Source of the DNA: a phage
DNA: 64,000 nucleotides
Reading direction: 5' to 3' (one strand)
Assembly: GCA_029742005.1 (NCBI GenBank)
Contig: GCA_029742005.1_4113.1
In this document: positions 172-60,505 of the stretch, in pieces
Layout: each line of letters starts with the position of its first letter
Position numbering within the stretch: position 1 is the stretch's first letter
Made by a program: the position numbers and the translations under genes
Notes under the pieces: model-generated
Told to the model about the DNA's origin: nothing
The model's input: the letters and a program-made list of their open reading frames with translations, nothing else
Databases searched by the model: none

Positions 172-348
172 ATGACACATGAAGAATGGTTAGATGAACT
201 AAAATTCAAACATAATCCTTTTGGTTTTGGTATACGCCAAGGTCATTATGATGTGTTAAAAGATAAACAACTTTTCAAATCATTTGTACTTGATGCGGAT
301 AGCAACCACTGGTTCATCTATGAGCTTGCAATTAGAGACAAAAAATAG
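172..348 (+). CDS. small hypothetical protein, MTHEEW-family paralog (58 aa)
   Basis: ATG..TAG ORF read manually (below the 60-aa track cutoff); N-terminus MTHEEWL shared with ORFs at 690, 1382 and 1543. Confidence 0.4.
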   Translation: MTHEEWLDELKFKHNPFGFGIRQGHYDVLKDKQLFKSFVLDADSNHWFIYELAIRDKK

Positions 349-353
349 TAAGA

Positions 354-452
<99 letters not shown>

Positions 453-1105: not shown

Positions 1106-1184
1106 CAAATGTTTTTGAAAAAACCAGAAAATGAATGATTTTTTTTGGGACAACTCAAAAATATATGATATAATAATTAGTACA

Positions 1185-3861: not shown

Positions 3862-4152
<291 letters not shown>

Positions 4153-15133: not shown

Positions 15134-15555
15134 GAGGTTATAATAAGATTTGTATTTTTGTATTTTTAGTTTGTGCATTCAATTCGTTTGGTTACTACTG
15201 TACAGAAAATAATATTTCATATGGTTTAAATCCTTTGTGGTTTACAATTTCTAATGTAGCACAAATTGGTATTGCTCTTATGTCTGCACTTATGTTCTGT
15301 CCAATTGTCACTATGGATACTGATCATGAAAGGCTTGGATTTCTCCGTGATACTGGAGACGAACCTTACAGTAGATTGATTGTGTTGTATCCATTTATTG
15401 TTATTTTAGGTACTAACATCCAACTTGGGTCATTATCTAATAGTGTTACATCAGCAGCTATTGCTATATTTGCATTCACATTTTTTATGGTACACAAATC
15501 AGTACTTAATTGGTATATCACAAAAATGGCAGAAGAAGGTACTAAAAATACTTGA
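15130..15555 (+). CDS. integral membrane protein
   Basis: ORF track; multiple hydrophobic segments. Confidence 0.5.
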   Translation: MRGYNKICIFVFLVCAFNSFGYYCTENNISYGLNPLWFTISNVAQIGIALMSALMFCPIVTMDTDHERLGFLRDTGDEPYSRLIVLYPFIVILGTNIQLGSLSNSVTSAAIAIFAFTFFMVHKSVLNWYITKMAEEGTKNT

Positions 15556-15580
15556 CATAATTTAGTATGTTATATATAAT
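15552..15580 (+). promoter_or_regulatory. sigma-70-like promoter
   Basis: TTGACA-N17-TATAAT. Confidence 0.5.
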
Positions 15581-15866: not shown

Positions 15867-15940
15867 AAGTATTTGACATAACAAATAATATGGAGTACAA
15901 TGTGCTCCTAATTTAATTATCAGCTAAAAAGGAAAACATT

Positions 15941-16201
15941 ATGAAATCTATTCTCGTTGCAGTTAACCTGGTTGCTTCCCCATCTTTCAACTTCAAACAA
16001 GTTGTTGCTGATAATCTGAAGAAGATCTGTCCAAACGCTGAATTAACTTTCTGTGTGTTTGATTCAGAAAAAGTAACTAAAGTTGATCTAAACTATCTTT
16101 TGAACGAAGTAAAAAGCGTTTCTGGTGAAAGTAACTTAAAAGTTCTTCATGATATTGCTGATGATTATGATGATACACTTGTAATTTCGGAGAAATTCTA
16201 A
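15941..16201 (+). CDS. hypothetical protein (86 aa)
   Basis: ORF track; AAGGAAA RBS. Confidence 0.5.
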   Translation: MKSILVAVNLVASPSFNFKQVVADNLKKICPNAELTFCVFDSEKVTKVDLNYLLNEVKSVSGESNLKVLHDIADDYDDTLVISEKF

Positions 16202-16206
16202 ATAAA

Positions 16207-16626
16207 ATGTTTAGATTTCTTCAGTACTTAATCATTAAGTTCTTTGGTTATCATACGATTGAAGGAAAAGCTACACTTGCACATAAAATCTTTGTAGCAT
16301 TATGTACGGGTGATTATGACGTATTGAATAAGTACTGTAAATCGCAAGCATGTATTGATATAATGGCACTTCGTATCTATGAGTGCCAGTTCAATAGATA
16401 TAATTTTTACCAGTACAGATTTGATAAAGAAGAATTTGATAGCATCAAAATGCTAAAGAATTTATGTAACAATAAAAAGAATATGCATATATCAGAATTT
16501 GTTGCTTTGTATTTTTATTTAAAAAGTTCATTGTATATGAACACGATGCAAAGATTCGATACTAGAATTAATGTATTCACCGATAAAGAATTTTATATAT
16601 ACGATAAATTCTTAGATAAGGTTTAA
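16207..16626 (+). CDS. hypothetical protein (139 aa)
   Basis: ORF track. Confidence 0.5.
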   Translation: MFRFLQYLIIKFFGYHTIEGKATLAHKIFVALCTGDYDVLNKYCKSQACIDIMALRIYECQFNRYNFYQYRFDKEEFDSIKMLKNLCNNKKNMHISEFVALYFYLKSSLYMNTMQRFDTRINVFTDKEFYIYDKFLDKV

Positions 16627-16627
16627 T

Positions 16628-17125
16628 ATGACAACTGTTTATATTGATAAACGATTAAATTTATTGATTACCGATTCTAGAGTTACGTCAACTATACCAC
16701 GAAACTTATTTGGTTTTTTTCCACTAAGACCAAAATATCAATATGGAGTTGTTAATCAAAAAACTTTATATGTACATGACCGTTTATTCAGTGCTAGTGG
16801 GGCAGTAAGTGAAATTGATAAAGTACTGGATTGGTTAATTAATAAAGTACCAGTTATACCTGACAGAAAGTTAAGTTGCCATTGTGTGCTTCTTTCTAAA
16901 GATTATGTTATTCATATGATTTTAACTAAAGGAAAGTTTATTAAAAAACTTGAATATCTACATGAAGACTACACTTTCTTTATGGGAAGTGGTGGAGAAT
17001 ACATGGTAGATGCTGCTATTCATGAAGAACATACAACTTTATATGATAAAGTGTTTAGTACTTTCATGGATGTGCATAACCATGATTGCTTCACAGATGA
17101 TAATATTAATGTATATCGATTTTGA
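16628..17125 (+). CDS. hypothetical protein (165 aa)
   Basis: ORF track. Confidence 0.5.
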   Translation: MTTVYIDKRLNLLITDSRVTSTIPRNLFGFFPLRPKYQYGVVNQKTLYVHDRLFSASGAVSEIDKVLDWLINKVPVIPDRKLSCHCVLLSKDYVIHMILTKGKFIKKLEYLHEDYTFFMGSGGEYMVDAAIHEEHTTLYDKVFSTFMDVHNHDCFTDDNINVYRF

Positions 17126-17146
17126 TTTCGTCATTAGGAGATGTAA

Positions 17147-18112
17147 GTGAAAAAGCTTGATTTAAATACAATTGCCGAAGAAGTTCTGGATGAATGTTTT
17201 GCTAATGAAGAAGTCAACACACTAGAAGCCTTAGATTTCGTTGAAGATAAAGATGAAAATGAAGGTAAAGTACAAAGCAGTTTCAAATATAATATTACAC
17301 TTAAGCGACCACCAAATGTTTCCAATGAAGATCTAATTCGTGATATTCAAGCTGGTATCAATGTAAAGAAAAACACTGAACTGTTAGTTCGTTACAATTA
17401 TGGACTGATTATTGATGTAGCAAGTAAATGTACTTGTTATATCCCATTTGAAGATAAGATTTCATATGGTGTTGAGGGGTTCATGAGAGCACTAAAAACC
17501 TTTGATCTTAATAAGAATGTGAAGTTCATTACCTATGCTTCTTCTAGTATTTACATGACAGTTTATAACGAAAGTTCTGACGCTAACTATATGGTACACT
17601 TCCCACGTTATATGAGTGTTCATAAGATCAAAGTAAAAAGATTCTGCCAGGAATATATGCGTAAACATGGTGTTCGCCCAACTCCTGAAATAATCTCAGA
17701 GGGTACTGGGATTGAGATTCAGCATGTTAATAATTGTTTGTTATTTCAAAGCGAATACACTTCACTGGATGCACCATTAGACGGTGTTACAGATGGTACA
17801 CTAGGTGACATTATTCATTCACCTGCTTCTGATTTTAACCTCAATGTTGATAGTATTCGTGCACCTTTACGTTATGCTATCAATGAACTGACTAACGAAT
17901 TGAGTACTAAAGAACGTGAGATTATCCAGCGTGTTCATGGTCTAGGTGAATATGAACCTGAAACGCTTCGTGAGATTGCTGATAATGGTTTTGTTGATGA
18001 TAATGGAAAATATGTTAAATCCCGTTCATCAATACACCGAAAGTACAGTGAAGCTATGCAAAAGCTTAAGAAGCTAGTACTTGCAAAAGGGTACGAATAC
18101 GAAGATTTCTAA
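17147..18112 (+). CDS. sigma-70 family RNA polymerase sigma factor (GTG start)
   Basis: Region-2-like LVRYNYGLIIDVASK and FITYASSSIYMTVYN, region-4 HTH-like LSTKEREIIQRVHGLGEYEPETLREIADNGFV...KSRSSIHRKYSEAMQKLKK; RBS TAGGAG before GTG. Confidence 0.65.
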   Translation: MKKLDLNTIAEEVLDECFANEEVNTLEALDFVEDKDENEGKVQSSFKYNITLKRPPNVSNEDLIRDIQAGINVKKNTELLVRYNYGLIIDVASKCTCYIPFEDKISYGVEGFMRALKTFDLNKNVKFITYASSSIYMTVYNESSDANYMVHFPRYMSVHKIKVKRFCQEYMRKHGVRPTPEIISEGTGIEIQHVNNCLLFQSEYTSLDAPLDGVTDGTLGDIIHSPASDFNLNVDSIRAPLRYAINELTNELSTKEREIIQRVHGLGEYEPETLREIADNGFVDDNGKYVKSRSSIHRKYSEAMQKLKKLVLAKGYEYEDF

Positions 18113-18120
18113 AGAAAAAA

Positions 18121-18146
18121 GGTTGGCATAAGCCAACCTTTTTTTA
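18121..18146 (+). terminator. rho-independent terminator
   Basis: GGTTGGC-ATAA-GCCAACC followed by TTTTTTT. Confidence 0.7.
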
Positions 18147-18671
18147 TGGGATGAAGTAAAAGTTTGTGATATAATTATCTTGTACAATTCTGTTGGCATG
18201 ATATTCATGTACCTGATCCACTCGAAAACGTAGAGGGCAGTTGAGCAGTCCGACAGTGCGAACAGCAAAAGAAACCCGTTAGATGTGGGCATAGTTTGAA
18301 CCCCTCACGGCAATGCGGCTGTATAAAGAACCACGTTAGGATAGCTGGTGGTTCCTTGATAGACATATAAGGATAACACCTTACGAATTATCTAAGGGAG
18401 AGTTATCAAATTTTGTACAGGAAAGTTGCGTCCAGAATTTGAGTACTCACATTAAGTATTTGATTGCATAGATACTTAATGAAGATACACTATGTTTAAA
18501 AGTGTAGACCGTCATATGAAACTGAAGTAGAGAGAAACAGGATGACCCGCTTTCGCACTCGTTATGAGTAATCTTCAATGCAATAGCTCTGATACCATCA
18601 GCGTCAAATTTCCCTCCTTGTGGGGGGGGAAGAAAAATCCCTTCCTCAAATCCCGTCAATATTAAAAGTCC

Positions 18672-18700
18672 TTGACAGTTATTAATCATTCGCGTAGAAT
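18672..18700 (+). promoter_or_regulatory. sigma-70-like promoter
   Basis: TTGACA-N17-TAGAAT upstream of ORF 18765. Confidence 0.5.
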
Positions 18701-18764
18701 ACGTAGTATTAGAAGCGAACAGACATCTCTTCGAGATGGATGATTAACCATTAAGGAATATCAA

Positions 18765-29314: not shown

Positions 29315-29429
29315 TTTAACTTTGGGACAACCATTCTTATTATGATATAATGTTTTATGTCATTCGATATAAATGACAACGGAACTATAAATATTATAGT
29401 AAAATTTATCTCTTATAGGAGTTATAAAA

Positions 29430-43203: not shown

Positions 43204-44373
43204 CTAAGCAGAAGGCATATCCTTCATCTTAATAAATGAAAATTGTGTACCAGTATTTGTGGTTTGATCAGTAAAATATGAATTACTACCAGCCCAGTAC
43301 AATTCATTATTAACTATACAATATATAACAGAACTCGAACTCTGTGAATACACACGACTTATATTTGATGGTTCTACTCCAGTACTGAACTGAACCGAAC
43401 CCAACTGTGAACTTGGTATCACATCAGTTGGTCTACCTAAACCATTAACACCAGCCCCACCACCACATGTATATACCCCAGTACTATCAGTTGATATATT
43501 AACATAACCATTCCCGGCATTTTCAAATAGTATTTCACTGGGAGCAACACCAAATCCTGTAAGATCTATTTTCCTGAATGTAGTGTAAACAGTAGAACCA
43601 CCAACACCTCTTCCACCATAATCATTAGAACCAGCCATATAGATACTATATCCAGAACTTCCTAAACATAATAACTGTACGTTGTCATATAATATTTGCA
43701 TAGATATAACGTTATCAGGAATACTCAATACCGTAAAAGTAGTTAAAGAAGAACTTCCAATATTACTACCAACCGATGTTCCACATCTGTAGTACTTACC
43801 GCCTTTTATATAATGGAACGATGAACCCCCTAACTTATGTGCTCCTATTGCACTTACCTCAGTATCTATGAGAATGGGAGATACAACTTTGTTATTAACA
43901 CCTAACTCAGATCTACTGTTCATACCGAACCCATATAAACGACCATCTAACATCAATATTAGTGTACTACCGGAAGTACCCGCTGACGTAAATTCTATAT
44001 TCTTTATTTGCGACACGTCAATACCTACAAATAATGAAGTTACTTCAGTCCAGTTAACATATGAACCACTAGCCCCAAAATATCCACCCATGTATAGACC
44101 TGCACAATATAATTTATTATCAACAGTCTTTATTAATGTACCGGATACACACGCCCAAAAATCATCAACTTCATAGGGTACATGTACCCAACCACCTAAT
44201 ACATCACTAGCATCCCCTGTACCTAATTTATAGTTCGAACCAGAACCACGCATGTACATATTCCCTGTACTATAAAGTAATCCGACATGTAATTGACTAC
44301 CATCCAATTTCTTTATTTCGGGAAGAGTTGGTTTAATATTTCCGTACTTTAACATTCTTCCAAAAGGTAACAT
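43204..44373 (-). CDS. RCC1-like beta-propeller repeat protein, array member 1
   Basis: Start at MLPFGRMLKYGN after AAGGAGG RBS; repeated Y-x-x-G-x-N-x-x-G-x-L/G-G motifs. Confidence 0.7.
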   Translation of the reverse strand: MLPFGRMLKYGNIKPTLPEIKKLDGSQLHVGLLYSTGNMYMRGSGSNYKLGTGDASDVLGGWVHVPYEVDDFWACVSGTLIKTVDNKLYCAGLYMGGYFGASGSYVNWTEVTSLFVGIDVSQIKNIEFTSAGTSGSTLILMLDGRLYGFGMNSRSELGVNNKVVSPILIDTEVSAIGAHKLGGSSFHYIKGGKYYRCGTSVGSNIGSSSLTTFTVLSIPDNVISMQILYDNVQLLCLGSSGYSIYMAGSNDYGGRGVGGSTVYTTFRKIDLTGFGVAPSEILFENAGNGYVNISTDSTGVYTCGGGAGVNGLGRPTDVIPSSQLGSVQFSTGVEPSNISRVYSQSSSSVIYCIVNNELYWAGSNSYFTDQTTNTGTQFSFIKMKDMPSA

Positions 44374-44444
44374 AATTCCTCCTTTATTCATTATACTATA
44401 TTTAATACAAAAAGAAAAGCCAGTACAGAGTACTGGCCTATATT

Positions 44445-45164
44445 TTAGACTGAATTGTTAGGATAATATCTCCCACGTCCCCATATTATTCGCACAGCAC
44501 CACCACCAGCAGCCGTATAAGAAAAATTATCCCATATACTACCACCACCACCATACATCTTACCAGCACCACCACTACCAGCACCACCATTATATGAACC
44601 ATCGTATCTACCGCCAATACCATTAGCACCTTGAACAATGATACCAGTACCACCACCCGTACCAATGAACGAGGTATTATAGAATGCACCACCACCGCCG
44701 CCGCCGCCAGCACCATTTTCACCAGTGATTGCATCTCCGTTACCACCTTTACCAGTGTAGCCACCAGCACCACCACCAATGACTGCACCACCACTTACAC
44801 CAGCGTTGCCCCCATTACCACCACCATCATTAATAGCGTTAGCAGCTTTCCCACCTAGTCCACCAACCCTATATTCACCAGTGAAGCTAACACATAGTTT
44901 TTCAGTTCCACGATATAAACCGTTTTCAACTGGTGTAGTAGTGTTGGGATGTGTAAGAGAAACACTTAAGTACTCACCACTAGTAACCGGAATATTATTA
45001 CGCCACGATAAGCCGCCACCAGCACCACGTTGACCACCCGGCGAAATAACACATACTGATATTTCGGTAACGCCAGCAGGAACTGTAAATTGTGTTGTTC
45101 CTATTGTCGTGATTAATTGTTCACCATGTGGCTTATATTCAATTTTATTCCCTCCTTTATTCAT
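44445..45164 (-). CDS. glycine-rich repeat protein (start codon uncertain)
   Basis: ~100-aa N-terminal domain then GGxGG-rich tract ending GGGAVRIIWG; same upstream cassette as RCC1-like genes. Confidence 0.55.
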   Translation of the reverse strand: MNKGGNKIEYKPHGEQLITTIGTTQFTVPAGVTEISVCVISPGGQRGAGGGLSWRNNIPVTSGEYLSVSLTHPNTTTPVENGLYRGTEKLCVSFTGEYRVGGLGGKAANAINDGGGNGGNAGVSGGAVIGGGAGGYTGKGGNGDAITGENGAGGGGGGGAFYNTSFIGTGGGTGIIVQGANGIGGRYDGSYNGGAGSGGAGKMYGGGGSIWDNFSYTAAGGGAVRIIWGRGRYYPNNSV

Positions 45165-45218
45165 TATAATATATTTAATACAAAAAAGAAAAGCCAGTAC
45201 TCTGTACTGGCTTTTACA

Positions 45219-46409
45219 TTACAATTGTCTAGGTGTATCCAGTACATATCTATTTGTACGAGGACCACCATCATCATGCGTTCCGGTTGAATATATATTT
45301 TTCATATCAGCAGTTAGGAAAGTACGATACGAACCGCGATATATTTTAATTTTATCATACATAGAATATGTTATTCCTGACGGCAATGGACATGCAGTAA
45401 ATTTACCAATGGTAACATTAGAACCAACACCTAATGTACCAGCATAACCACTCGCATTTAAACCAGTTGCATATACACCTGTACTCGTAACTAGTATACT
45501 AGATTGTGATGCATATCCAGTATGGATTGAATAATAAGTTCCTGATGGTAATGTAGTACTATTATTCCCTAATACTGCTAGTGCTGTACTATTCGTAGTG
45601 TTATTACCCCATGCCCCATTATTAGCTAATCCACCAACTAGAAACTGACGTGCTCCTGTATTTGGATTCTCCACTAAAGCACTGACAGCACCAAATGAAC
45701 AAACAGTATATTGTAATGTTTTTGTATATGTGGTACTTGGCTTATACAAAGTATATTCATTAAATGGTGTCCATGTGGTACTAGTACTTATGCCAGATGT
45801 ACTACCACCAATATATAAATTATTTTGTGTATCAAAAAACATTGCACAGTAATTTGTTGACTGTATTTGTGCAATATCTACATCTGGTGTTACCGCTTTA
45901 ACAAATGAACCATCTGATATTTGATAAGTAGTTCCTGTACCATCTGCGAATTGTCTAGCACTATTCCACCCTGTACTCCATATTGTATTATTATCCATTA
46001 AGAAAGTAAACCATGTAGTACCTGCATACATCTGTTTAATTGAAGTACTTGAACTTTGTTTGTACAATTTTTCAATATATTGGTTATAACTTAAAAATGA
46101 TGTAGTACTAGTTTCTAAACCAATATGACTACCATATCCACAATAAAAATAATTTAAGTCCTTATCTTGAACTAACAAAGTTCCTTGTGTCATCCAGCAA
46201 TCTTTGACATTTTCTCTAATTAATGTCCACGACCTTACTGCATTATTATTTCCTCTACCAAACTTCCCAAAACTATTACTGCCTCGTGCGTATAGTTGAC
46301 CGTCGGTATAAAGTACAACAACCTCAGTATCAGTTGGTATTATTTTCTTAATTTGAAGAGGTTCAGGTGTGATATTCCCATAATCAAACATTCTAACAAA
46401 AGGTAACAT
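45219..46409 (-). CDS. RCC1-like beta-propeller repeat protein, array member 2
   Basis: N-terminus MLPFVRMFDYGN. Confidence 0.7.
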   Translation of the reverse strand: MLPFVRMFDYGNITPEPLQIKKIIPTDTEVVVLYTDGQLYARGSNSFGKFGRGNNNAVRSWTLIRENVKDCWMTQGTLLVQDKDLNYFYCGYGSHIGLETSTTSFLSYNQYIEKLYKQSSSTSIKQMYAGTTWFTFLMDNNTIWSTGWNSARQFADGTGTTYQISDGSFVKAVTPDVDIAQIQSTNYCAMFFDTQNNLYIGGSTSGISTSTTWTPFNEYTLYKPSTTYTKTLQYTVCSFGAVSALVENPNTGARQFLVGGLANNGAWGNNTTNSTALAVLGNNSTTLPSGTYYSIHTGYASQSSILVTSTGVYATGLNASGYAGTLGVGSNVTIGKFTACPLPSGITYSMYDKIKIYRGSYRTFLTADMKNIYSTGTHDDGGPRTNRYVLDTPRQL

Positions 46410-46478
46410 ATTTCCTCCTTATTCATTATACTATATTTAATACAAATAAGAATGCCAGTATCAAGTACTGGCATTATG

Positions 46479-47588
46479 TTATTTTGGTAAATCAATTTTA
46501 GTAAAGACTGCAACATCCTCGATTGCACCTGGAATGGCGTAATACGATCCAGTACTATACACATCTCCATTTTTGGTTAATATCGATGTCAAACCATCAC
46601 TAAAAAGAACATCCCTAATCTCACTAACTTCAACGGGTAATTGTAAATTGGTAGCACTATATATAGCACCAGTTTGAGAATTGTTTAATCCCAAACCACG
46701 GTTCGCCCCAACACCCTTCTGATATGTACTAGTAATTACCATTTGTGTAGCAGTATTTAAGGCAGGTGAATTCGTCATAAACAACGGAGAACTATTAGGC
46801 AAAGTACTTACAGGAACGGCACGGAATGTAGTCGTGCCTGAACTAAGAAAGTTTGGAGTTTGACCACATACGAAATATGATGTACCATTATAGTAATTGA
46901 ATGCATTACCACCAATGGCTGCATCGATTACACCAGAACTACGCAATCCCCAAGTGTTAATTTGTGTTTGGTTCCCCGTACCATGCTGTCCACTACTATT
47001 CCATCCAGAACTATATAGCTTATTATCTAATGTAAGATACATACTATCATTCGCATTGGTCATTACTTTACGAACGTTCGTAGCACATTGAGTTAATGTG
47101 TAAATTGATGAGGAACCAATACCCAAAGAACCACGATATCCATTATCTCCTGCACCATAGAGTACTGAATTAGTGCTAAGTACAAATATTAAACCATTTG
47201 TACATACAATATTAGCAATTTCACTTACTGGTATAGCATTGGTAAACCAATTAGTCCTTTCAACTAATACAGTACTGTAAGAAGTAGTTGTAGAAGATGA
47301 GAACCAGTACGTTTGACCTGATGTCCATATCGTATTATCATTTTTAATAATAACAAGTGTACGATCACCCACGAAAAAATTAGAAACATCTGCACTTACT
47401 AATATCCATGAAGATACCGTGTTGGTATTACCATTTCCAGATTCACCACCTTGATTTCTACCTATGTAATATAAATCATGTGAATCAGTCAATAAGAATT
47501 GACCTTGTGTAGAAGCACCAACTTTAATTATATTTTTAGGACCAGGTACAATATTTCCGTACTTAACCATTCTTGCAAAAGGTAACAT
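46479..47588 (-). CDS. RCC1-like beta-propeller repeat protein, array member 3
   Basis: N-terminus MLPFARMVKYGN; C-terminus FTKIDLPK. Confidence 0.7.
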   Translation of the reverse strand: MLPFARMVKYGNIVPGPKNIIKVGASTQGQFLLTDSHDLYYIGRNQGGESGNGNTNTVSSWILVSADVSNFFVGDRTLVIIKNDNTIWTSGQTYWFSSSTTTSYSTVLVERTNWFTNAIPVSEIANIVCTNGLIFVLSTNSVLYGAGDNGYRGSLGIGSSSIYTLTQCATNVRKVMTNANDSMYLTLDNKLYSSGWNSSGQHGTGNQTQINTWGLRSSGVIDAAIGGNAFNYYNGTSYFVCGQTPNFLSSGTTTFRAVPVSTLPNSSPLFMTNSPALNTATQMVITSTYQKGVGANRGLGLNNSQTGAIYSATNLQLPVEVSEIRDVLFSDGLTSILTKNGDVYSTGSYYAIPGAIEDVAVFTKIDLPK

Positions 47589-47598
47589 AATTCTCTCC

Positions 47599-48729
47599 TT
47601 AATTTAATAATGCCCCTGGCAAATCCACTTTGACGAATTGTGCATATGCTGAGGAATTTTGATCAAAGTTTGGTCCCAATCCATAAAATGAGCTAATGCC
47701 GTCTTCATTTGTGTATATGATATAAACGTTCTTTACATCATTTCCGCATATAAATCGAATGTCTTTCGTTTGTGTTCCCGCTGGAACATTACGAAGGTTC
47801 ACAACGCCATTACTTGCATTGTTATCAGCCGACGCAATTGGTAATTGATTTTGACCATATTGACCACGCATATTTTTTGCATCTAAACCAAACACAGTAT
47901 TTGATACCGCACCAACTTTCAAAAATGAACCAAAACTATTATTGAATGACTTTGGAAATGTACCACTATAAACACTTCTCCCATCTGATAATACCGCTGA
48001 ACTGAATTTCCCGTTATTCGATATGGCAAATTCATTGTAAGGAAGTGTACCCATTTTGGTATATACAGAATATGAATTAGTGGAAGTATTATCAATAATC
48101 TTATTACCATTATATCCAATACCATACTGGTATCCGTCTGCATCTTGAACTATACACAAAGGACCACTTGGGGTTTGTGTCAACGAAACAACACGTTCAA
48201 CTTGTATATCACCAAATGTATTTCTTCGCCATGTTCTATCTATTATAGTACTAGTATTACCCAAAGATAATTCCACACTATATAATAGATTGTTTTCAGT
48301 AAAAATGGCAACATAATATGCGTGGTTAATAACTTGCTTCATCCCAGCATCAATAACTTCCTGTGGAATATGATCAGTAACATCCAACCAATCAAGGTTA
48401 GATGATGCAATATCTGGAGTACTGAATTTGTCAAATCTAGTTGAGCCACAAACTAGCACTCTATCATCATTTGTCAAAGCCACTGTGCTAGTCTGCATAT
48501 TAGAACTGAATGATTTAACATTACTAATGTTAGACTTGTACCAACCCTTATCAGCAGCACCCACCGTGAATCCGGTTCCCATTGATCCACTTGTACTTGT
48601 ACCATAAGCCCACATCTCACCACTATATGTTAGTGCCATACAGTGGCTTCCATTTGCTTGGAAATCCTTTATACCAGTGGGAGCAACCACTGTATTCCCA
48701 TAATCAAACATTCTAACAAAAGGTAACAT
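47599..48729 (-). CDS. RCC1-like beta-propeller repeat protein, array member 4
   Basis: Start at MLPFVRMFDYGN; C-terminus FVKVDLPG. Confidence 0.7.
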   Translation of the reverse strand: MLPFVRMFDYGNTVVAPTGIKDFQANGSHCMALTYSGEMWAYGTSTSGSMGTGFTVGAADKGWYKSNISNVKSFSSNMQTSTVALTNDDRVLVCGSTRFDKFSTPDIASSNLDWLDVTDHIPQEVIDAGMKQVINHAYYVAIFTENNLLYSVELSLGNTSTIIDRTWRRNTFGDIQVERVVSLTQTPSGPLCIVQDADGYQYGIGYNGNKIIDNTSTNSYSVYTKMGTLPYNEFAISNNGKFSSAVLSDGRSVYSGTFPKSFNNSFGSFLKVGAVSNTVFGLDAKNMRGQYGQNQLPIASADNNASNGVVNLRNVPAGTQTKDIRFICGNDVKNVYIIYTNEDGISSFYGLGPNFDQNSSAYAQFVKVDLPGALLN

Positions 48730-48804
48730 AACTAAAATCTCCATATAATAATTATAATGTATTTACAAAAAAATACCAGTACATATTTCAGTACTGGCAT
48801 TTTG

Positions 48805-49932
48805 TTAAAATGGTAAATCTATTTGTTTAGTAAATGTCATACTTAGTGGTATTGAACACATTGACGCATTTCTCCCATTTAAATTGGACGGAGGCTGTCC
48901 GTTCATCCATATATTGGTATCGTCGTAAAAAGTACTCCACCACGTAGAACCTTCCGTATGAAGATTAATATTAAAATCAGGGAATTGACATTCTTGAAAA
49001 ACATCAAAAAACGGGATAGATGATACACTACTACCAGTAAATGGAGTGTAGCCTGTTGACATTAATTTATTAGTATCCGAATTTACCAAAAAGATAACAG
49101 AACCAGTATTGAATGGTGAATATTTTGGATACAAATTACTCATATCACCGATAGTGAAGTTGATATCAAATATTTTACTATGCTTACCAGTTCCTGAAAG
49201 TGTAGTACCAGTTACATATATTTTATTATCAGTTGTTCCCATGACAAACCCAATTCCAAATCCCACACAAAATGTTATGTCATATGGTATATTATCAAAG
49301 AGTGGGACAAACGTTGTGGCATCACCAGTAGTAGCTTTTATTTGATAGCTATTATTTGCCCCAGCACCCCAAACAGTACCATTTGATTTCACTTTGAATA
49401 TACTATCTCCTATGTAGTGACCGTATATACTATCAACTTCAGTATCAAGTTTTGTCCATTGTGATACAAAGTTTTTATGCCCTAAACCTAAACAACCATT
49501 GCGGTTTAGTCCCCTGCCGTATAGTGTACCATCATTCATCAGTACAAATGTTGTGTATCCACAAAGCATTTTTTTGATTTGTGTAACATCAATACCAGCA
49601 AAAAAACCACTCCAATCAGTATATCCTTGTTGGATTGCGTTTGATTTGGTGAATGACATAGTTGGTCCTGAACCATATATTTTACCATCTTTTATAATCA
49701 CTGAATAAGAACCTAACCATACATCTTGAACATTCTCACTAATTGTTTTCAATTCACCATATGCAGAGAATGGAGTACTTTGCCCTGCACTATATGATGA
49801 ATCTTCACCGTGTGCATATAATGTTCCATTTTCTGTTAGAATCATTTCCAAATATACACAATTGACAATTTTCTTTATTTTATTAACTTCTATTTTATTT
49901 CCGTACGCTAACATCCTTGCAAAAGGTAACAT
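48805..49932 (-). CDS. RCC1-like beta-propeller repeat protein, array member 5
   Basis: Start at MLPFARMLAYGN; C-terminus FTKQIDLPF. Confidence 0.7.
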   Translation of the reverse strand: MLPFARMLAYGNKIEVNKIKKIVNCVYLEMILTENGTLYAHGEDSSYSAGQSTPFSAYGELKTISENVQDVWLGSYSVIIKDGKIYGSGPTMSFTKSNAIQQGYTDWSGFFAGIDVTQIKKMLCGYTTFVLMNDGTLYGRGLNRNGCLGLGHKNFVSQWTKLDTEVDSIYGHYIGDSIFKVKSNGTVWGAGANNSYQIKATTGDATTFVPLFDNIPYDITFCVGFGIGFVMGTTDNKIYVTGTTLSGTGKHSKIFDINFTIGDMSNLYPKYSPFNTGSVIFLVNSDTNKLMSTGYTPFTGSSVSSIPFFDVFQECQFPDFNINLHTEGSTWWSTFYDDTNIWMNGQPPSNLNGRNASMCSIPLSMTFTKQIDLPF

Positions 49933-50007
49933 AACTAAAATCTCCATATAATAATTATAATGTATTTACAAAAAAATACCAGCACATATTTCAGTACTGG
50001 TATAATG

Positions 50008-51180
50008 TTATGGTAAAATAATAGCTTGTAACGAACTCATACCCAATGTTGGAACACTCGCCTGTGGTGCTGGTGCATTCACTTTTGGTGATGAAACCGC
50101 ATAAGTCATTCCTGTACCCAAATCTGGATCAAAAACTACAGAACAATAATCCCCATTGTATATAAGTCCATTAGTATATCCTTGTACACTTTGAATGCAT
50201 TTCGTGAACGTACCAATGTCAGTAGTGGCATTTATTAAGTTCCTCCCACGGTAGCCACATGTGTATATGAAATTATCATCACCTATGTACATACTCGCAT
50301 TCCCAGAAGAACTACATAGATAAGACATATAAGCACGCATGTTTTTAGGAGCAACTGACAATGTACCAGCATAGAATTTATTATTCATACCCGAAATATC
50401 ACCATCACCCAAAGCACCAAAACTCCCCCAACCAGTACCATAATATCTCTTATCACTCAAGAATATAATACAGTTGTTATTACACATCTTGACTTGATAT
50501 ATCAATGAAGGATCAACCCCAGGGAATGATTCAGTGTATGTTAGAACAGCCAGATCAGTACTGGCATTACATTGATGATATGTATTAGTACCAGCGGACA
50601 ATATTGTACCATCAACTAATAGAATCCTCGAAGTGCCAGTACCAGCAATACAAGCAACAGCATTACCTGTATATATTTTTCTGAAAGTAAAGAAACCAAC
50701 AGTCTTACTCCCCTGTCCACTCCAACCAGTATTATCAACACCACATGCCCATACTGAACCATCTTGCATGATCATCATTACACCATAGCGTTCTATCGAA
50801 ATATAGACAATCTTCGTAGTATCAACTGCACTAAATCTAGAAGTTATATCAGTCCAAACCTTTACACTCACCGCCGTCGCACCGAAAGTAGGATCTTCCC
50901 CTGCTATCATTATCCTACCATTGTTAGTCAGATACATTGTCTGACTATAACCAGTACTACAAAACTTAACACTATCAGTCTCTGGAACTTTTAACCACTC
51001 GTTGTAACGTGTTACGTTAGTGTTATTATCTAACTGATAATAGTTATTCATCCCAGATACATATAACACACCATCCTTTATTAAACTATAAGTCGCACTA
51101 TAGTCACTACAGGTATAACGTGTACCCACAGGTCGCTCAACGACGTTCCCATATTCTAACATCCTTACAAAAGGCAACAT
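50008..51180 (-). CDS. RCC1-like beta-propeller repeat protein, array member 6
   Basis: Start at MLPFVRMLEYGN. Confidence 0.7.
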   Translation of the reverse strand: MLPFVRMLEYGNVVERPVGTRYTCSDYSATYSLIKDGVLYVSGMNNYYQLDNNTNVTRYNEWLKVPETDSVKFCSTGYSQTMYLTNNGRIMIAGEDPTFGATAVSVKVWTDITSRFSAVDTTKIVYISIERYGVMMIMQDGSVWACGVDNTGWSGQGSKTVGFFTFRKIYTGNAVACIAGTGTSRILLVDGTILSAGTNTYHQCNASTDLAVLTYTESFPGVDPSLIYQVKMCNNNCIIFLSDKRYYGTGWGSFGALGDGDISGMNNKFYAGTLSVAPKNMRAYMSYLCSSSGNASMYIGDDNFIYTCGYRGRNLINATTDIGTFTKCIQSVQGYTNGLIYNGDYCSVVFDPDLGTGMTYAVSSPKVNAPAPQASVPTLGMSSLQAIILP

Positions 51181-51221
51181 AACTAAATACCAGAACATAT
51201 TTCAGTACTGGTATCGTAGCG

Positions 51222-52364
51222 TTAAAATGGCATCTTAACCTCTTTATATACTAATATATCACCGGATAAACCAGGAAACGCAGAACCATTACCACATGCA
51301 TATATAGTACTGTCATTCCACGCCGCTTGATGGTAATTACCTATAGTACATTTATAATTCGATAAATCAGTCACACCAGGTGTTAGTACATAATATACTG
51401 GTCCACTAGGTAAATTAAAATCAAATCTACCAAAGTAGTTCAAACCAGATGAATAGGACTTGTCATTAGCAAATATTACAGTACCATCTTCTGTAAAAGA
51501 ACTGTGAGAAATGTCTTTGAGATTGTTCACAACACCAGACGGTATTGATGTATTCAACGTAAAGGACGTCAATGGTGCTGCACTCGGTGTGTTGTTCGCC
51601 GTGTAACCATAATATGCATAACCAGCTACATATACACTCGAATCTGAACAAAATAAAAATGCACTCCTATAACCCAACCTAATACTCTCTATAGTCTTAC
51701 TAAAAGTAACTTTAGTAAAGGTAGGAACTAAACCACTATATCCTACCCCACATGTACCAAAATCATTCTTCCCAGTACTGTACAATTCGTTATTATTTGT
51801 AAGGTAAAATGACGCAGCAGCACCGCTATCTAAAGTACTGTAAACGTCTTTTACATTACTCGCAATCAATTTAAATGCACTCAATACGGTAGCCGAACCA
51901 TTGTTAGACAGCGTTGTTGAATCCGTGCCTTGTCCTATTGTATATAAATCTCCAGTACTAGTCAAAACAAATATACCATTAGTCGCCATAACAATTCTGT
52001 CATTCTTTAAATTAAATGAACTAAAAAGTGTACTTATATCAGTAAAGGTAGTATAACGCCCACTCTGCCCTATACTCGATAAATTCCCACTCAAATAAAC
52101 CTTATTATCATTACCAACAGCTACATAACAACCCCACCCAGCATATATCTGATCAATGCCTTGTATCGGTATTTGTAACCATTCACTACCAGTTACCGAA
52201 GCAGTACTTCCAGTTCCAAGTTCACCAGAGTTATTAGCTCCGAATACATATAAATTCCCACTATCCGATAAAACAACTGTATTACCAACTCCAGTTTTTA
52301 TATCCTTGATACCATTCTTAGGAGCAACATTCCCATAATCAAACATTCTAACAAAAGGTAACAT
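51222..52364 (-). CDS. RCC1-like beta-propeller repeat protein, array member 7
   Basis: N-terminus MLPFVRMFDYGN; C-terminus YKEVKMPF. Confidence 0.7.
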   Translation of the reverse strand: MLPFVRMFDYGNVAPKNGIKDIKTGVGNTVVLSDSGNLYVFGANNSGELGTGSTASVTGSEWLQIPIQGIDQIYAGWGCYVAVGNDNKVYLSGNLSSIGQSGRYTTFTDISTLFSSFNLKNDRIVMATNGIFVLTSTGDLYTIGQGTDSTTLSNNGSATVLSAFKLIASNVKDVYSTLDSGAAASFYLTNNNELYSTGKNDFGTCGVGYSGLVPTFTKVTFSKTIESIRLGYRSAFLFCSDSSVYVAGYAYYGYTANNTPSAAPLTSFTLNTSIPSGVVNNLKDISHSSFTEDGTVIFANDKSYSSGLNYFGRFDFNLPSGPVYYVLTPGVTDLSNYKCTIGNYHQAAWNDSTIYACGNGSAFPGLSGDILVYKEVKMPF

Positions 52365-52436
52365 ATTTCCCTCCTTTATTCATTATACTATATTTAATCA
52401 AAAATAAAAGCCAGTACTTGAGTACTGGCATAGTAT

Positions 52437-53564
52437 TCAAAAAGGTAAATCAATTTGCTTAGTAATAATAGTATCTAACGGTATTGAACACAATGAGAAA
52501 TTCTTTCCACCCGTATTTTCAGGATTATATCCATTCATCCATACATTATTACCTTCGTAAAATGTATTCCAGTATAAAGCCCCACTATATCGTGTATTCG
52601 AATTGAACGATGGAAAGTTGAATTCTTGGAATGATGTAAAATATGGAATGGAACTTGAACTACTTCCCGTAAATGGGGTATACCCAGTTGCTATTAGTTT
52701 GTTTGTATCTGCATTAATTAAAAATACAACACTAGTCGAATAGTCCAACGAATCAGGATGATATATATTACTCATATCACCTATAGTAAAACCAACATCA
52801 AAAACTTTACTATGTGCACCACTACCAGCAAAAGTAGTTCCAGTTGCATATATTTTATTATCAGATGTTATCATTACAAAACCAACACCAGAAACAAAAC
52901 TGCATTTTATATCATAAGATATATCATCAAACAACGGAACAAATGTGGTTGCATCACCCGATGTTGCTTTAACTTGAAAGCTGTTATTTGAACCTGAACC
53001 ATATACAGTTCCATCGTTTTTAATCTTAAACAATGTATCGCCAAGGTAACCGCCAAATATATTATCCACATTAGTGTCAAGTACAGTCCACGCTGAAACA
53101 TAATTTTTATGTCCTAAACCTAATGCACCACTTCGATTCCATCCTCTTCCATAAAGTGTTCCGTCTTTCATTAATATAAATGCTGTATAACCACATAACA
53201 TTTTTTTAATTTGGGTAACATCTATACCAGTGAAATACACAGCCCAGTCAGTATATCCTTGTTGGAAAGTATCAGAATTCGTGAATGCATATGTTGGACC
53301 TGAACCATATATTTTATCACCTTTAATAACAACGGAAAACAATCCTAACCATAAGTCATCAACTTCAGTTGTGATTTGTTGAACTGCTCCTAACGATACA
53401 AACTTTGTACTTAAACCCGCATTATAGTTTGAATCTTCACCGTGTGCATATACAGTGCCATCTTGCATTAGAAACATTTCAAGAGTGCCACTAACAACAC
53501 TTTTCTTTATATTATTAACTTCGATTATATTCCCATAATCAAACATTCTAACAAAAGGTAACAT
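52437..53564 (-). CDS. RCC1-like beta-propeller repeat protein, array member 8 (close paralog of member 5)
   Basis: N-terminus MLPFVRMFDYGN; C-terminus ITKQIDLPF. Confidence 0.7.
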   Translation of the reverse strand: MLPFVRMFDYGNIIEVNNIKKSVVSGTLEMFLMQDGTVYAHGEDSNYNAGLSTKFVSLGAVQQITTEVDDLWLGLFSVVIKGDKIYGSGPTYAFTNSDTFQQGYTDWAVYFTGIDVTQIKKMLCGYTAFILMKDGTLYGRGWNRSGALGLGHKNYVSAWTVLDTNVDNIFGGYLGDTLFKIKNDGTVYGSGSNNSFQVKATSGDATTFVPLFDDISYDIKCSFVSGVGFVMITSDNKIYATGTTFAGSGAHSKVFDVGFTIGDMSNIYHPDSLDYSTSVVFLINADTNKLIATGYTPFTGSSSSSIPYFTSFQEFNFPSFNSNTRYSGALYWNTFYEGNNVWMNGYNPENTGGKNFSLCSIPLDTIITKQIDLPF

Positions 53565-53636
53565 AATTCCCTCCTTTATTCATTATACTTTATTTAATAC
53601 AAATAAGAATTCCTGTATCGAGTACTGGCATTCAAT

Positions 53637-54785
53637 TTATTGTAAAAAGGACATATCTACTTCTGTATAACTAAGAATGTTTTGACCAGCAATTCCACCC
53701 ATTACTACTATTGCATACCCACAATAATATAATTTCCCAGTGTCCGTAAGTATAAGTGAACCAGAAGGTGTTCTTACCAAATTACACGAACTATTAAAAG
53801 AAGTATACGAAGGAGTATAGGAGTACTGATTAATATTATTACCAACACCTAATTGACCACCCCTATTCGAACCAGATGCATAAAGTACTTCATCTGCTTT
53901 GACAATATGTGATGCCATGTTAGCAACACATGCATATACACCATATACCCCTGTACTCAATAATGTAGGAGTCTTGTATTGAATATCAGTACTAGTAGAT
54001 GTTCCACCTGTGCCAAATTCATTACCATATTGTGCTCCGTACTGCTTCCCACATGCGTACAAATTATTATCCGATTTGATAAAAAATGTACTCTGATAAC
54101 TTACATCAAAATCTATAACATCCGAAGAAATCATCGTTACCCCAGTAATCGAAGTTTGATTACCAGTACCCAACTGGTAGTAATAGTTAAAACCACAACC
54201 CCATAAAGTATTATCTTCTTTTAGGTATATGTTACCAACTGCCTTTTTAACCGAAGTTATAGTATCTACCCTTTTGAATGTGTTAAAAGAATTAATGTTT
54301 GTACCATCACCAAATGATGATAGGTTCGAGTTATTGTTAACTCCACAACAATACAACGTACCATCGTTTGTTATCAAATTCACCTTCATATCATTAAAAC
54401 TACTCATGTATTTTATATCAGAAACATTAATACCACCTGATGTTATCCATGTAGTACAGTCCGTCCATAACGTCTTCCTATCAGTTACCCCAGTAAATGC
54501 CTTCGTGTTACCAGTGATAAACACTTTACCAGTACCCTTTTCTTCATACAATTGACAATCACTACTGTTATCTTCCAATAAAACCCTCTGTACATTCTCT
54601 GCACAAAGAATAAATTTACTCGATGCTACACCTGTTCCAGTACCCCAATTCGTCGCAGAAGATGCATACAACTTATGTGTTAGTGTATCATGCAAATACA
54701 TAGAACCACTAGAATATATTTTAAAACGCCCAGAGTTGGTAGGTGCTTCATTCCCATAATCAAACATTCTAACAAAAGGTAACAT
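53637..54785 (-). CDS. RCC1-like beta-propeller repeat protein, array member 9
   Basis: Start at MLPFVRMFDYGN; C-terminus YTEVDMSF. Confidence 0.7.
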   Translation of the reverse strand: MLPFVRMFDYGNEAPTNSGRFKIYSSGSMYLHDTLTHKLYASSATNWGTGTGVASSKFILCAENVQRVLLEDNSSDCQLYEEKGTGKVFITGNTKAFTGVTDRKTLWTDCTTWITSGGINVSDIKYMSSFNDMKVNLITNDGTLYCCGVNNNSNLSSFGDGTNINSFNTFKRVDTITSVKKAVGNIYLKEDNTLWGCGFNYYYQLGTGNQTSITGVTMISSDVIDFDVSYQSTFFIKSDNNLYACGKQYGAQYGNEFGTGGTSTSTDIQYKTPTLLSTGVYGVYACVANMASHIVKADEVLYASGSNRGGQLGVGNNINQYSYTPSYTSFNSSCNLVRTPSGSLILTDTGKLYYCGYAIVVMGGIAGQNILSYTEVDMSFLQ

Positions 54786-54827
54786 ATTTCCTCCTTTATT
54801 CATTATATCATATTTACCCCATAACCC

Positions 54828-58868: not shown

Positions 58869-59506
58869 TTAAACACAAGTAGACAGGGGAAGCTCCTAGT
58901 GAACAACCTTTATGTACAGGCGAATTGTTAAAATTCAGCCTGGACAAATGCGATCACTAGGATTCTCCCCAGGCTAAACCCCGTAATCATAGGTAGTCAT
59001 AAGTAATCATATATAAACATTTATATGAGCACCGTAGAATCACAGAATGATTATATATGATTCAGTACTGATTAGTATAGACAAGATTGCTCAAGAATGC
59101 ACGGAAATGTGTGTGAATGATTCAGTACTGATATCCCACTAAGTAGGCAGAGGAAGTCTGCCGTACTTTTTAGTTTCCAAGCTCCTTTTCCATTTTTCAA
59201 ATTACATCAAATGTAATCAAAAGTAATCACGCAATGATTAGTACTGAATTATTACTTTCACCTTAATTTCAATGACCCCTTTACCCTTCGGGGTAAAATT
59301 CCATTACCCCTTGAGGCTCCAGCAAAAAGTTGGTTAGTACTCCATCCTAAATCTCGATCCTAAAAATTTTGGAGTACCTATGAAATAAAAGTTGGATCTT
59401 CGAAAGTTGAAATTTACGTTGGGACGTTTATGATTTGTGGGATATAATGATGTTTGTAGTCGGGTAGTTCTCAAGAATATCAGTACTGAATAATGAAAGA
59501 AAGCTA

Positions 59507-59533
59507 TTGACATTATGATTCAGTACTGTATAA
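59507..59533 (+). promoter_or_regulatory. sigma-70-like promoter inside the ORF-free region
   Basis: TTGACATTATGATTCAGTACTGTATAAT; no ORF downstream. Confidence 0.5.
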
Positions 59534-59920
59534 TGTTCTACATAGCTTCAAGGGGTGATGAGTTGCTGCGAACAATTCATTTACTCTACCTCCTGTCGTG
59601 AGACAGTACAGAAAAGATAGTTCCTCCTGTGGTGGTACATCTTTTTGAACCTCATATGAAAATCGTAATAACAGTACTGATATTAACAGAATGGTGTCAG
59701 TACTGATTTTAATCTAAAGCATTATGCCACCAGCACAAGCTGGTGGATTCCCTCTAACAGTATTCAGTACTACATGATAGTCTTCATCCTCCTAGGGTAA
59801 CATAGTGAGGGCTATGATGGCAGTACTGAATACTCCCTTTCAAAAGATAGATCTATGGTATAGTACTGACGGATTTTGGGCGTAGTTACCCTGGATGGAT
59901 TTTGGACGTAGATATGTCTA

Positions 59921-60060
59921 GCCCTCCAGAAGTCTGGAAGTAAAGATGGCTATCCATCTAGACGGCTAAACGGCTAGATTTCTGGATGGCTGGATGGCTA
60001 GACGTTTGGACGGCTAAACGGCTAGATGGTTACACGTCTGGAAGTATAGACGGCTAAATC
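59921..60060. repeat. cluster of short direct repeats (iteron-like)
   Basis: GACGGCTAAACGGCTAGAT x2, GTCTGGAAGTA x2, multiple GGATGGCT copies. Confidence 0.6.
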
Positions 60061-60220
60061 AAAATTTTATTTTGTTTTTTCCAATAGTTCCCCTACCGCG
60101 TGGGGATAGTTTCCCCGCAGTATCTGGAGTTAGATTTTTCTGAATCTGGAATCATTATCTTATAAACTGGGGGCAATGTCAACCGCCTGGACGGATATTT
60201 TTAAAAATTTTTTCAGTACT

Positions 60221-60295
60221 GAATTTTGGGCGTAACTATGCACCCGGTGGGCTATAGTCTTTCTCGACTTGATGGAACTATTATACAGTACTGAA
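60221..60295. repeat. ~70-bp repeated element, copy 1
   Basis: GAATTTTGGGCGTAACTATGCACCCGGTGGG...; related copies at 60436 and 63774. Confidence 0.5.
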
Positions 60296-60435
60296 AAAAT
60301 AAAGCAATACCCTGGAAGCAAAAAAGTTTTAATTAATTTGCTTGCCATCCTGGGCCGTACTATGGTACTATATTTCAGTACTGAGAAAGTGCGTTTACCT
60401 GCTAGGGTGCGGGAGTGTATCCTTTTTTTATATCT

Positions 60436-60505
60436 TGAATTTTGGGCGTAATTCCGCACCCTCTGGGGTTTCCGCTTTCTCGCGTCTATGTAGTAATTAT
60501 ACGCT
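60436..60505. repeat. ~70-bp repeated element, copy 2
   Basis: GAATTTTGGGCGTAATTCCGCACCCTCTGGGG...TAGTAATTATACGC. Confidence 0.5.

Follow-up and report, generated by a model that had tools for sequence, protein, structure and literature searches.

The gene studied here lies at positions 17147..18112 (+ strand) of a 64,000-nucleotide (nt) stretch of phage DNA (NCBI GenBank assembly GCA_029742005.1, contig GCA_029742005.1_4113.1), which is referred to below as the window. Judged from its sequence, its 321-amino-acid (aa) product is a divergent, group-3-like alternative sigma factor with a unique N-terminus and an insertion in its helix-turn-helix (HTH), and it is very probably a functional member of the sigma-70 family. 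We lean towards one promoter class of the phage, designated M and defined by a lineage-specific -35 box joined to a host-like -10 region, as the class served by this sigma. It seems to us an even chance that the factor reads the lineage-specific -35 box through the helix that follows the inserted hairpin, as the middle tier of a three-sigma cascade that drives replication genes, tRNAs and a family of ~480-nt RNAs.

The window was ~98.6% identical to Escherichia phage 121Q across 3.5 kb and 96-98.5% identical to PBECO4, phAPEC6, G17, Sharanji and other Asteriusvirus phages; the source phage is a Rak2-like jumbo phage of the genus Asteriusvirus, whose members are ~350-kb jumbo myoviruses. The whole 121Q genome, assembled from its annotated pieces, was used as a proxy for the remainder of the source phage. 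The sigma gene starts with GTG, 7 nt downstream of the ribosome-binding site TAGGAG (17134..17139, + strand), and stops with TAA. This start is supported because all the homologues aligned have MKKLDLN as their N-terminus. The orthologue in 121Q, gp167, shows 99.4% aa identity.

Profile searches, alignments and structure prediction all pointed to the sigma-70 family. With Pfam, Sigma70_r3 (PF04539) matched with an E value of 2e-9 (37.8 bits, above the cut-off of 25.3), Sigma70_r4 (PF04545) with 3e-5 (23.8 bits vs a cut-off of 24.1, 0.3 bit under it, and over residues 251-279 only) and Sigma70_r2 (PF04542) with 7e-5 (23.0 bits vs a gathering cut-off of 24.0, 1.0 bit under it). The region 2 and region 4 matches are significant by E value, though below the curated cut-offs of Pfam. 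The NCBIfam sigma-70 superfamily model TIGR02937 passed its cut-off of 42.9 with 44.7 bits, RpoD_Cterm of the same collection was aligned with an E value of 6e-25, and PHROG 351 ('RNA polymerase sigma factor', E 2.6e-60) was the sole PHROG matched. A phmmer search of PDB sequences recovered sigma factors only, the top one being RpoD (E 5e-17, residues 31-283), and hhalign aligned a 14-member family profile to residues 377-576 of E. coli sigma70 (probability 99.4%, E 5.7e-21). An AlphaFold2 model of moderate confidence, built with 14 homologues, showed three helical domains (mean predicted local distance difference test, pLDDT, 67; sigma4, 83-89), and the top 50 Foldseek matches listed for it in PDB were almost all sigma-factor chains of RNA polymerase complexes.

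The divergence from the host factor began at the N-terminus. An acidic region (aa 1-51; 17147..17299, + strand) was predicted to be disordered (pLDDT <50) except for the short family-conserved helix MKKLDLNxIxxEVLDECF, and nothing was aligned to regions 1.1 and 1.2, the profile-profile alignment beginning at residue 78 and phmmer reaching residue 31 weakly. The sigma2 domain (aa 60-143; 17324..17575, + strand) was found by Pfam, phmmer and hhalign and as AlphaFold2 helices over residues 60-143. Its core-binding region 2.2 is conserved, and the protein presumably binds core RNA polymerase. Region 2.3/2.4 corresponds to F127-N141 ('FITYASSSIYMTVYN' vs E. coli 'FSTYATWWIRQAITR'), with an ungapped alignment of 'KFITYASSSIYMTVYN' vs E. 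coli 'KFSTYATWWIRQAITR'. HMMER and hhalign both gave colinear alignments with region 2 of RpoD; in these, the A-11 pocket residues F419, K426, F427, T429 and Y430 were retained, and sigma70 W433/W434, Q437, T440 and R441 were replaced by S133/S134, M137, Y140 and N, respectively; the tryptophan dyad was absent in 14/14 family members aligned. The sigma3 domain (aa 154-199; 17606..17743, + strand) was recognised by Pfam, phmmer and AlphaFold2, and in its region 3.0 sigma70 H455 and E458 are replaced by Y155 and V158.

The predicted sigma4 domain (aa 234-313; 17846..18085, + strand), matched by Pfam slightly under the cut-off and visible in the AlphaFold2 model (pLDDT 83-89), carried the most unusual feature, a family-specific insertion within the HTH of region 4.2 (aa 280-292, NGFVDDNGKYVKS; 17984..18022, + strand), predicted to fold as a small beta-hairpin. 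This hairpin of ~9 aa is conserved across the family with the pattern G-[FY]-x-D-x-x-G-K-x-x-x-x, in which G281, D284 and G287 are invariant. In the AlphaFold2 model, region 4.2 consisted of a helix, the hairpin and then a long helix, 293-313. The start of the latter, R293 S294 S295 I296 H297 R298 K299 Y300 (18023..18046, + strand), is the predicted -35 recognition helix and would be equivalent to sigma70 R584-E591. By position and by the pattern xRxx[IL]xxxxxxAxxKL, residues R293, S294, S295, I296, H297 and R298 would correspond to sigma70 R584, E585, R586, I587, R588 and Q589.

Compared with E. coli RpoD and RpoS, which were the best NCBIfam and PDB matches, sigma2, sigma3 and sigma4 are colinear over ~200 residues. 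However, the inferred -35 readers E585/R588/Q589 would be S/H/R in the phage sigma, and the turn of its HTH has ~9 additional aa. The scores with the equivalog models were far under their cut-offs: 88.2 bits vs 354 for RpoD_Cterm (TIGR02393), 64.1 vs 555 for NF004208 (RpoD) and 70.5 vs 378.7 for RpoS. An RpoD orthologue is ruled out by the scores with the RpoD models, the lack of regions 1.1 and 1.2 and the replaced signature residues, and several records over-annotate it as 'rpoD' or 'RpoD'. A preliminary description of the window, made from its letters without database searches, had reported the reading frame of 321 aa with its GTG start after TAGGAG, exactly as we found it, together with region 2-like and region 4 HTH-like segments, which the profile, alignment and structural evidence bore out; the hidden Markov model search that it had suggested, with sigma-70 region 2, 3 and 4 profiles, is the Pfam search given above, in which all three regions matched, regions 2 and 4 slightly under the curated cut-offs. 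Its expression 'canonical sigma-70-type' had to be abandoned in view of the RpoD_Cterm score, the missing regions 1.1 and 1.2, the replaced melting, -12, TGn and -35 residues and the insertion in region 4.2.

The gene itself is not new, and it is annotated in dozens of GenBank records. GenBank products that go by the names 'RNA polymerase sigma factor', 'rpoD' or 'sigma-70 family' were 99.4-99.7% identical to the window protein, and one database cluster with those names matched it at 100%. Orthologues with 31-45% identity were present in RaK2, K64-1, 7t3, EJP2, GAP32, CBB, Serratia BF, the Yersinia fHe-Yen9 phages and XbC2, and one was found in all Rak2-like jumbo phages. The sigmas annotated in Rak2-like or 'group 2' phages (121Q gp167, PBECO4, phAPEC6, Sharanji RpoD, RaK2 ORF244, CBB_513 and GAP32_490) are the same gene with the same domain layout, the aa identity being 99.4-100% for entries from Asteriusvirus and 31-45% for those of other genera. 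Iyer et al. regarded phage-encoded sigmas as a defining trait of the 'group 2' jumbo phages (PMC7824862), and reviews count such sigmas as a hallmark of this group, which lacks an RNA polymerase of its own. The CBB paper placed the orthologue CBB_513 among small hypothetical genes that its authors suspected to be early, and predicted three promoter types (PMC5259590); the CBB copy lies in a region of small hypothetical genes comparable to that of the window. According to the Sharanji paper, the phAPEC6 paper and two reviews, the sigma 'likely' associates with host RNA polymerase. The published accounts of these sigmas do not mention the lost sigma70 signature residues or the HTH insertion, and no assignment of the sigma to a promoter class was found in them.

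Three promoter classes, all strand-biased, were recognised. The first, class E, is of the host type and includes the promoters upstream of the sigma gene, which is the last gene of the operon 15941..18112 and has no promoter of its own. Upstream of this operon lie TTGACA-17-TATAAT (15552..15580, + strand) and, nearest to it, TTGACA-17-TACAAT (15873..15901, + strand), and directly 3' of the sigma stop codon there is an intrinsic terminator (18115..18145, + strand) composed of an A-run, GGTTGGC-ATAA-GCCAACC and a T-run. By its position, the gene belongs to an early operon. Sites of the form TTGACA-N16-18-TAnnnT numbered 18 on the + strand of the window and 1 on the - strand, and the 32 perfect class E sites (TTGACA-N16-18-TATAAT) of 121Q were on the + strand only and clustered among the small genes at 50-205 kb. 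A generic promoter scan of 10-26 kb gave 77 sigma70-like sites vs 83 in shuffles, with no overall excess, and the informative set of early promoters is limited to the perfect-consensus, strand-biased subset.

Class M had the consensus (T)G[GA]GACA(A), a 16-nt spacer and (G)TG[AC]TATAAT. We counted 27 such sites on the + strand of 121Q and none on the - strand, where 3.0+-2.0 were expected; when TGn was included, the numbers were 19 and 0, vs 0.17 expected. The spacer was of 16 nt in 22 of the 27 sites, with T-15 in 77% and G-14 in 81% of them, and in class E the TG tends to lie one base nearer the hexamer than in class M. The class M sites of 121Q precede the genes for primase (promoter at 15294-15321), exonuclease, topoisomerase II, the DNA polymerase operon, nudix and ClpA, as well as the late sigma gene g591 (321900-321927, ~60 nt upstream of it). 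In the window, one of them, TGGGATG-N-GTGATATAAT (18147..18175, + strand), comes directly after the sigma terminator. Two others, at 334..363 and 1146..1174 (both + strand), are each located ~12 nt upstream of a tRNA gene, tRNA-Gly (376-448) and tRNA-Ser (1185-1274) respectively; the phage tRNAs seem to share their promoter class with the replication genes.

Class L comprised T4-late-like (T)ATAAATA sequences before the genes for the major capsid protein, scaffold, baseplate, fibre and other structural proteins. A class M promoter at 29323..29351 (+ strand) lies upstream of the structural gene at 29430, and the T4-late-like TATAAATA at 29386 stands between them. The corresponding late factor seems to be encoded by g591 of 121Q, a gp55-like late sigma of 279 aa, longer than T4 gp55 (PHROG 12791, E 2.7e-154; PHROG 234, E 8e-18), which adjoins SbcCD-like genes (locus L008, 18986-19825). 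The possibility that the window sigma itself was a late sigma of the T4 gp55 type was rejected, as it matched PHROG 351 only and the gp55-like protein is the product of a separate gene. Three sigmas, namely host sigma70, the window sigma and the gp55-like factor, are thus available in this phage system for three promoter classes. Another candidate, the 'putative sigma 54' of 121Q (g533; locus L007, 2135-2467), turned out to be a ribosome-hibernation (S30AE) protein (PF02482, E 4e-9) and no sigma.

The class M promoters were compared in a syntenic, primase-centred block of 41 kb from 121Q, CBB, RaK2, 7t3 and EJP2, using the orthologous promoters before RNase H, the SSB-like gene, g11-like, primase, exonuclease, g35-like and g41-like. 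The -10 part, (G)TGnTATAAT, was constant in all five lineages, whereas the -35 box depended on the lineage. The box was TG[GA]GACA in 121Q (window), where the predicted helix is S R S S I H R K Y; TGGGACA in 7t3 (S R T S L H R C Y); TGAGACA in EJP2 (N R C T I H R R Y); TGAAAC[AG] in CBB, GAP32 and Yen9-03 (S K A T L S R R Y); and TTGAACA in RaK2 (V R G T L H Y K F). Helices with R..HR were therefore paired with GRGACA (121Q, 7t3 and EJP2), those with K..SR with GAAAC (CBB, GAP32 and Yen9-03) and the one with R..HY with TTGAACA (RaK2). The cross-matrix of boxes and phages was strongly diagonal, with an almost empty - strand: the 121Q-type box was counted 5 times in 121Q, 9 in 7t3, 6 in EJP2, 0 in CBB and 1 in RaK2, the CBB-type box 2, 0, 0, 10 and 1 times in the same order, and the RaK2-type box 5 times, in RaK2 only. 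The published 'divergent' -35 motif of CBB and GAP32, TGAAACG, was neither enriched nor positioned in the window or in 121Q, because this lineage uses TGRGACA.

Host-type TTGACA promoters were kept in 121Q, 7t3, EJP2 and CBB, the RaK2 block having 0 on the + strand. Because the M box changes by lineage while the TTGACA promoters persist, a phage-encoded, lineage-varying factor would be its reader, and not the near-invariant sigma70 of enterobacteria. The match of box and helix would not be due simply to shared ancestry either, because the sigma tree places 7t3 and EJP2 with CBB (42-45% identity) and 121Q with RaK2 (45%); the box-helix match in 7t3 and EJP2 had been predicted, and the prediction recorded, before it was found to hold. 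In sigma70, R584 contacts -31, E585 and R588 are tied to -33, positions 584-589 set the -35 specificity, and bases -33 to -35 have been tied to residues 585, 588 and 589 (PMC2613000, PMC12262734). In agreement with this, the conserved pair in our comparison is C-31 and the equivalent of R584 (K in CBB), and the bases (-33 to -35) and residues that vary are the upstream ones, although the mapping of individual residues of the predicted helix to bases of the box is inferred.

The primary sequence, the promoter classes and the lineage comparison are consistent with the following order of events. The sigma would be made early, from promoters of the host sigma70 type, and would join E. coli core RNA polymerase and direct it to class M (TG[GA]GACA, 16-nt spacer, TGnTATAAT), where the recognition helix of region 4.2 (R293, S294, H297 and R298), placed after the family-specific hairpin insertion, would read the altered -35 box. 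Class M would switch on the replication and nucleotide-metabolism genes, the tRNAs, the structured RNAs described below and the gene of the gp55-like late sigma, which would then read the ATAAATA late promoters. Transcription would pass in this way from host sigma70 (early) to the window sigma (middle) and to the gp55-like factor (late), a timing suggested by the layout found in silico: the sigma gene lies under host-type promoters, class M sites precede the replication genes, and g591 is under a class M promoter.

Several observations weigh against this proposal. In its -10 region, class M matches the host consensus and has a canonical TGn, and the E. coli sigma70 holoenzyme could probably use these promoters unaided; the phage sigma, on its side, is devoid of the sigma70 residues for TGn (H455/E458), for -12 (Q437/T440) and for melting (W433/W434). 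Sequence-to-profile alignments end at 'TLREI' (sigma70 'TLEEV'), the first HTH helix of region 4.2, hhalign ends at residue 277, and region 4 by itself could not be aligned by BLASTP with its sigma70 counterpart, because of which the register of the recognition helix rests on the AlphaFold2 model and the sequence pattern. The covariation of box and helix comprises two independent changes only, and another co-evolving DNA-binding protein of the phage would give the same pattern. The sigma genes of CBB, GAP32 and Yen9-03 are downstream of a terminator with no obvious promoter, which weakens the case for an 'early' timing of the sigma in those phages. Finally, no published expression, binding or transcription test of the sigma or of any orthologue was found in the literature, nor were transcriptome or mutant data for Asteriusvirus or its close relatives.

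In one alternative, host sigma70 transcribes class M through TGnTATAAT while another phage activator, functionally analogous to MotA/AsiA, binds the M box, and the phage sigma serves a small or unrecognised set of promoters. We consider such sigma appropriation unlikely, although several points speak for it. The -10/TGn of class M is that of the host, the residues with which sigma70 reads TGn and -12 are missing from the phage sigma, and a gene for an HTH regulator is found two genes upstream of the sigma gene in CBB and XbC2. Many T4 middle promoters likewise have a box overlapping the -35 region and a -10/TGn of the sigma70 type. However, T4 AsiA and MotA, used as tblastn queries (100% identical to T4-like records), had no significant match in the 121Q genome; the best one, an AsiA-like stretch in g502 (E 0.055), was supported neither by Pfam nor by PHROGs and was rejected. 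Appropriation would also leave the conserved three-domain sigma of every Rak2-like phage without a class, though three classes match three sigmas, and it has to contend with an M box that covaries with residues of the sigma's own helix.

A second alternative, which we find improbable, is that the phage sigma is a general substitute for sigma70 with broad recognition of TATAAT in early and middle promoters and without -35 preference, acting once host sigma70 has been inactivated or outcompeted. A perfect TATAAT in both E and M classes and the conserved A-11 pocket (F419, K426, F427, T429 and Y430) are what such a substitute would lead one to expect, but the lineage-specific M box, the tight 16-nt spacing and the strict strand bias imply a sequence-specific reading, and the equivalents of the TTGACA readers E585, R588 and Q589 are replaced. 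It is very improbable that the protein is a decoy which binds core RNA polymerase mainly so that host sigmas are displaced and transcription of the host ceases, with no productive initiation of its own, as the lack of the tryptophan dyad, important for melting in sigma70, and the acidic, disordered N-terminus might hint, since alternative sigmas are commonly without that dyad and since the DNA-facing Y130 and F127 and the region-4.2 helix with R298 and Y300, none of which a decoy needs, are conserved family-wide at 31-45% overall identity.

The proposal of a middle sigma that reads class M has counterparts in other phages. It shares with two characterised phage factors of the sigma-70 family, phiEco32 gp36 (with gp79) and gp28 of the sigma cascade of Bacillus phage SPO1, the logic of a phage sigma that redirects host core RNA polymerase to phage middle or late promoters; the likeness is one of logic, and the phmmer search of PDB matched cellular sigmas only. 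In contrast to both phages, the -10 region is host-like here and only the -35 box is phage-specific, and no gp79-like partner of the kind known from phiEco32 was identified here. Structures of phiEco32 gp36/gp79 have been reported (PMC12276001).

The resemblance to T4 lies in the three tiers, in the host-type early and ATAAATA late promoters, in the gp55-like gene beside SbcCD-like genes, and in middle promoters that replace the -35 region and keep a sigma70-like -10/TGn. T4 differs in that a full three-domain sigma is found in 121Q in place of MotA/AsiA, and in that the M box, TGRGACA, is unlike the MotA box. The preliminary description had contrasted the window with T4, which relies on gp55 and MotA/AsiA, and had supposed a different transcriptional takeover. 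The supposition agrees with the presence of a sigma-70-family factor and the result of the AsiA/MotA search, whereas the comparison itself needed correction, the source being a Rak2-like jumbo phage that encodes a gp55-like late sigma as well. The possible link that it had suggested between the sigma and one of the distinct promoter classes is plausible for class M, whose -35 box covaries with the predicted helix in 121Q and its relatives.

The 650 nt that follow the sigma gene (18113-18764) are devoid of open reading frames (ORFs) and contain what we consider the most interesting item near it, a conserved, multi-copy element that appears to be a structured RNA. The candidate (18183..18668, + strand; 3' end approximate) lies behind the class M promoter at 18147..18175 and was recognised by covariation. 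Three paralogues were found in 121Q, at 192.8, 247.5 and 326.6 kb, all of them in unannotated gaps and directly behind a class M promoter. By blastn, the element was present in 62 phage records at 256 places, with 2-5 copies per genome, and it was 70-81% identical in 7t3, CBB, GAP32, Serratia BF and Erwinia, Yersinia and Xanthomonas phages, whose sigma proteins are only 31-38% identical to the window sigma. The copies of CBB, GAP32, Yen9-03 and 7t3 each had the M-type promoter of their own lineage, whereas the XaC1 copy had no recognisable one upstream. The RaK2 genome contains a diverged copy, again after the sigma stop codon and with an M promoter of the RaK2 type. Loci of the element other than those in the window and 121Q are L022-L026 and L009 (1295-1691). 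Synteny was also conserved: in 121Q, 7t3 and XaC1 one copy keeps its place with DNA endonuclease VII, and in 121Q and RaK2 a second one does so with the sigma gene.

An alignment of nine sequences of this RNA had 69 consensus pairs in 15 helices, with compensatory double changes in 32 of the 69. The alignment cells were paired in 97.3% of the cases vs 85.1+-0.9 in shuffles (0/500 reached the observed value), and in 39-45% when the partners were slid. No family of Rfam 15 matched any copy at E<=1, and a scan of IMG/VR with a pattern of the RNA core returned 121Q itself only. The element looks like an undescribed, multi-copy family of structured RNAs of ~480 nt, and the copy after the sigma gene is a putative target of the sigma.

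As far as annotation is concerned, the name RpoD should give way to that of an alternative sigma that is divergent and whose HTH carries an unusual insertion. It also provides a testable model for an uncharacterised transcription programme, specifying the promoters that would be read and the residues and bases that would set the specificity, and the natural specificity variants of 121Q, CBB and RaK2 could serve as orthogonal pairs of sigma and promoter.

Other features of the window were noted. Terminator-promoter fusions, GGGTTGACTTCGGTCAGCCCTTTTTGTTATAAT, are repeated upstream of the genes at 26640, 29892, 33488, 38163 and 38746; in these, the -35 hexamer TTGACT lies within the terminator stem and TATAAT comes after the T-run. 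A promoter-like cassette, AAAGTACTTGCAAACTAAGTTTAAAAGCGTATAAT, with TTGCAA as its -35 region and AGTACT preceding it, is repeated before several small genes (upstream of 60843, 61317 and 63090). The palindrome CAGTACTG, which contains a ScaI site, occurred 63 times in the window vs 0.9 expected (e.g. 20510, 36204, 59481-59828 and 60214-60746). It sits directly 5' of the -10 region in many early promoters (CAGTACTGTATAAT), but also in terminator stems and coding DNA, is clustered at 59.0-60.8 kb, and may be an operator or another protein-binding site.

An ORF-poor region of ~2 kb (58870-60840), unannotated in 121Q (135195-137160), contains one class M promoter (59420..59448, + strand), one early promoter, many copies of CAGTACTG and short iterons of the GGCTAGAYG / GGATGGCT type; the region resembles an origin or some other cis-acting element. 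On the - strand, at 43204-54803, ten paralogues of ~370-396 aa form an array and are annotated in 121Q as RCC1-like 'DNA condensation' proteins; ahead of most of them stand a hairpin that includes CAGTACT and the sequence TTTGTATTAAATATAGTATAAT, possibly a variant of the late-type promoter. Finally, ARAGORN identified at 3901-3992 a tRNA-Ser with the unusual anticodon ACT, in agreement with the annotation of 121Q, whereas the seven tRNAs given in the Sharanji paper include one for Arg.

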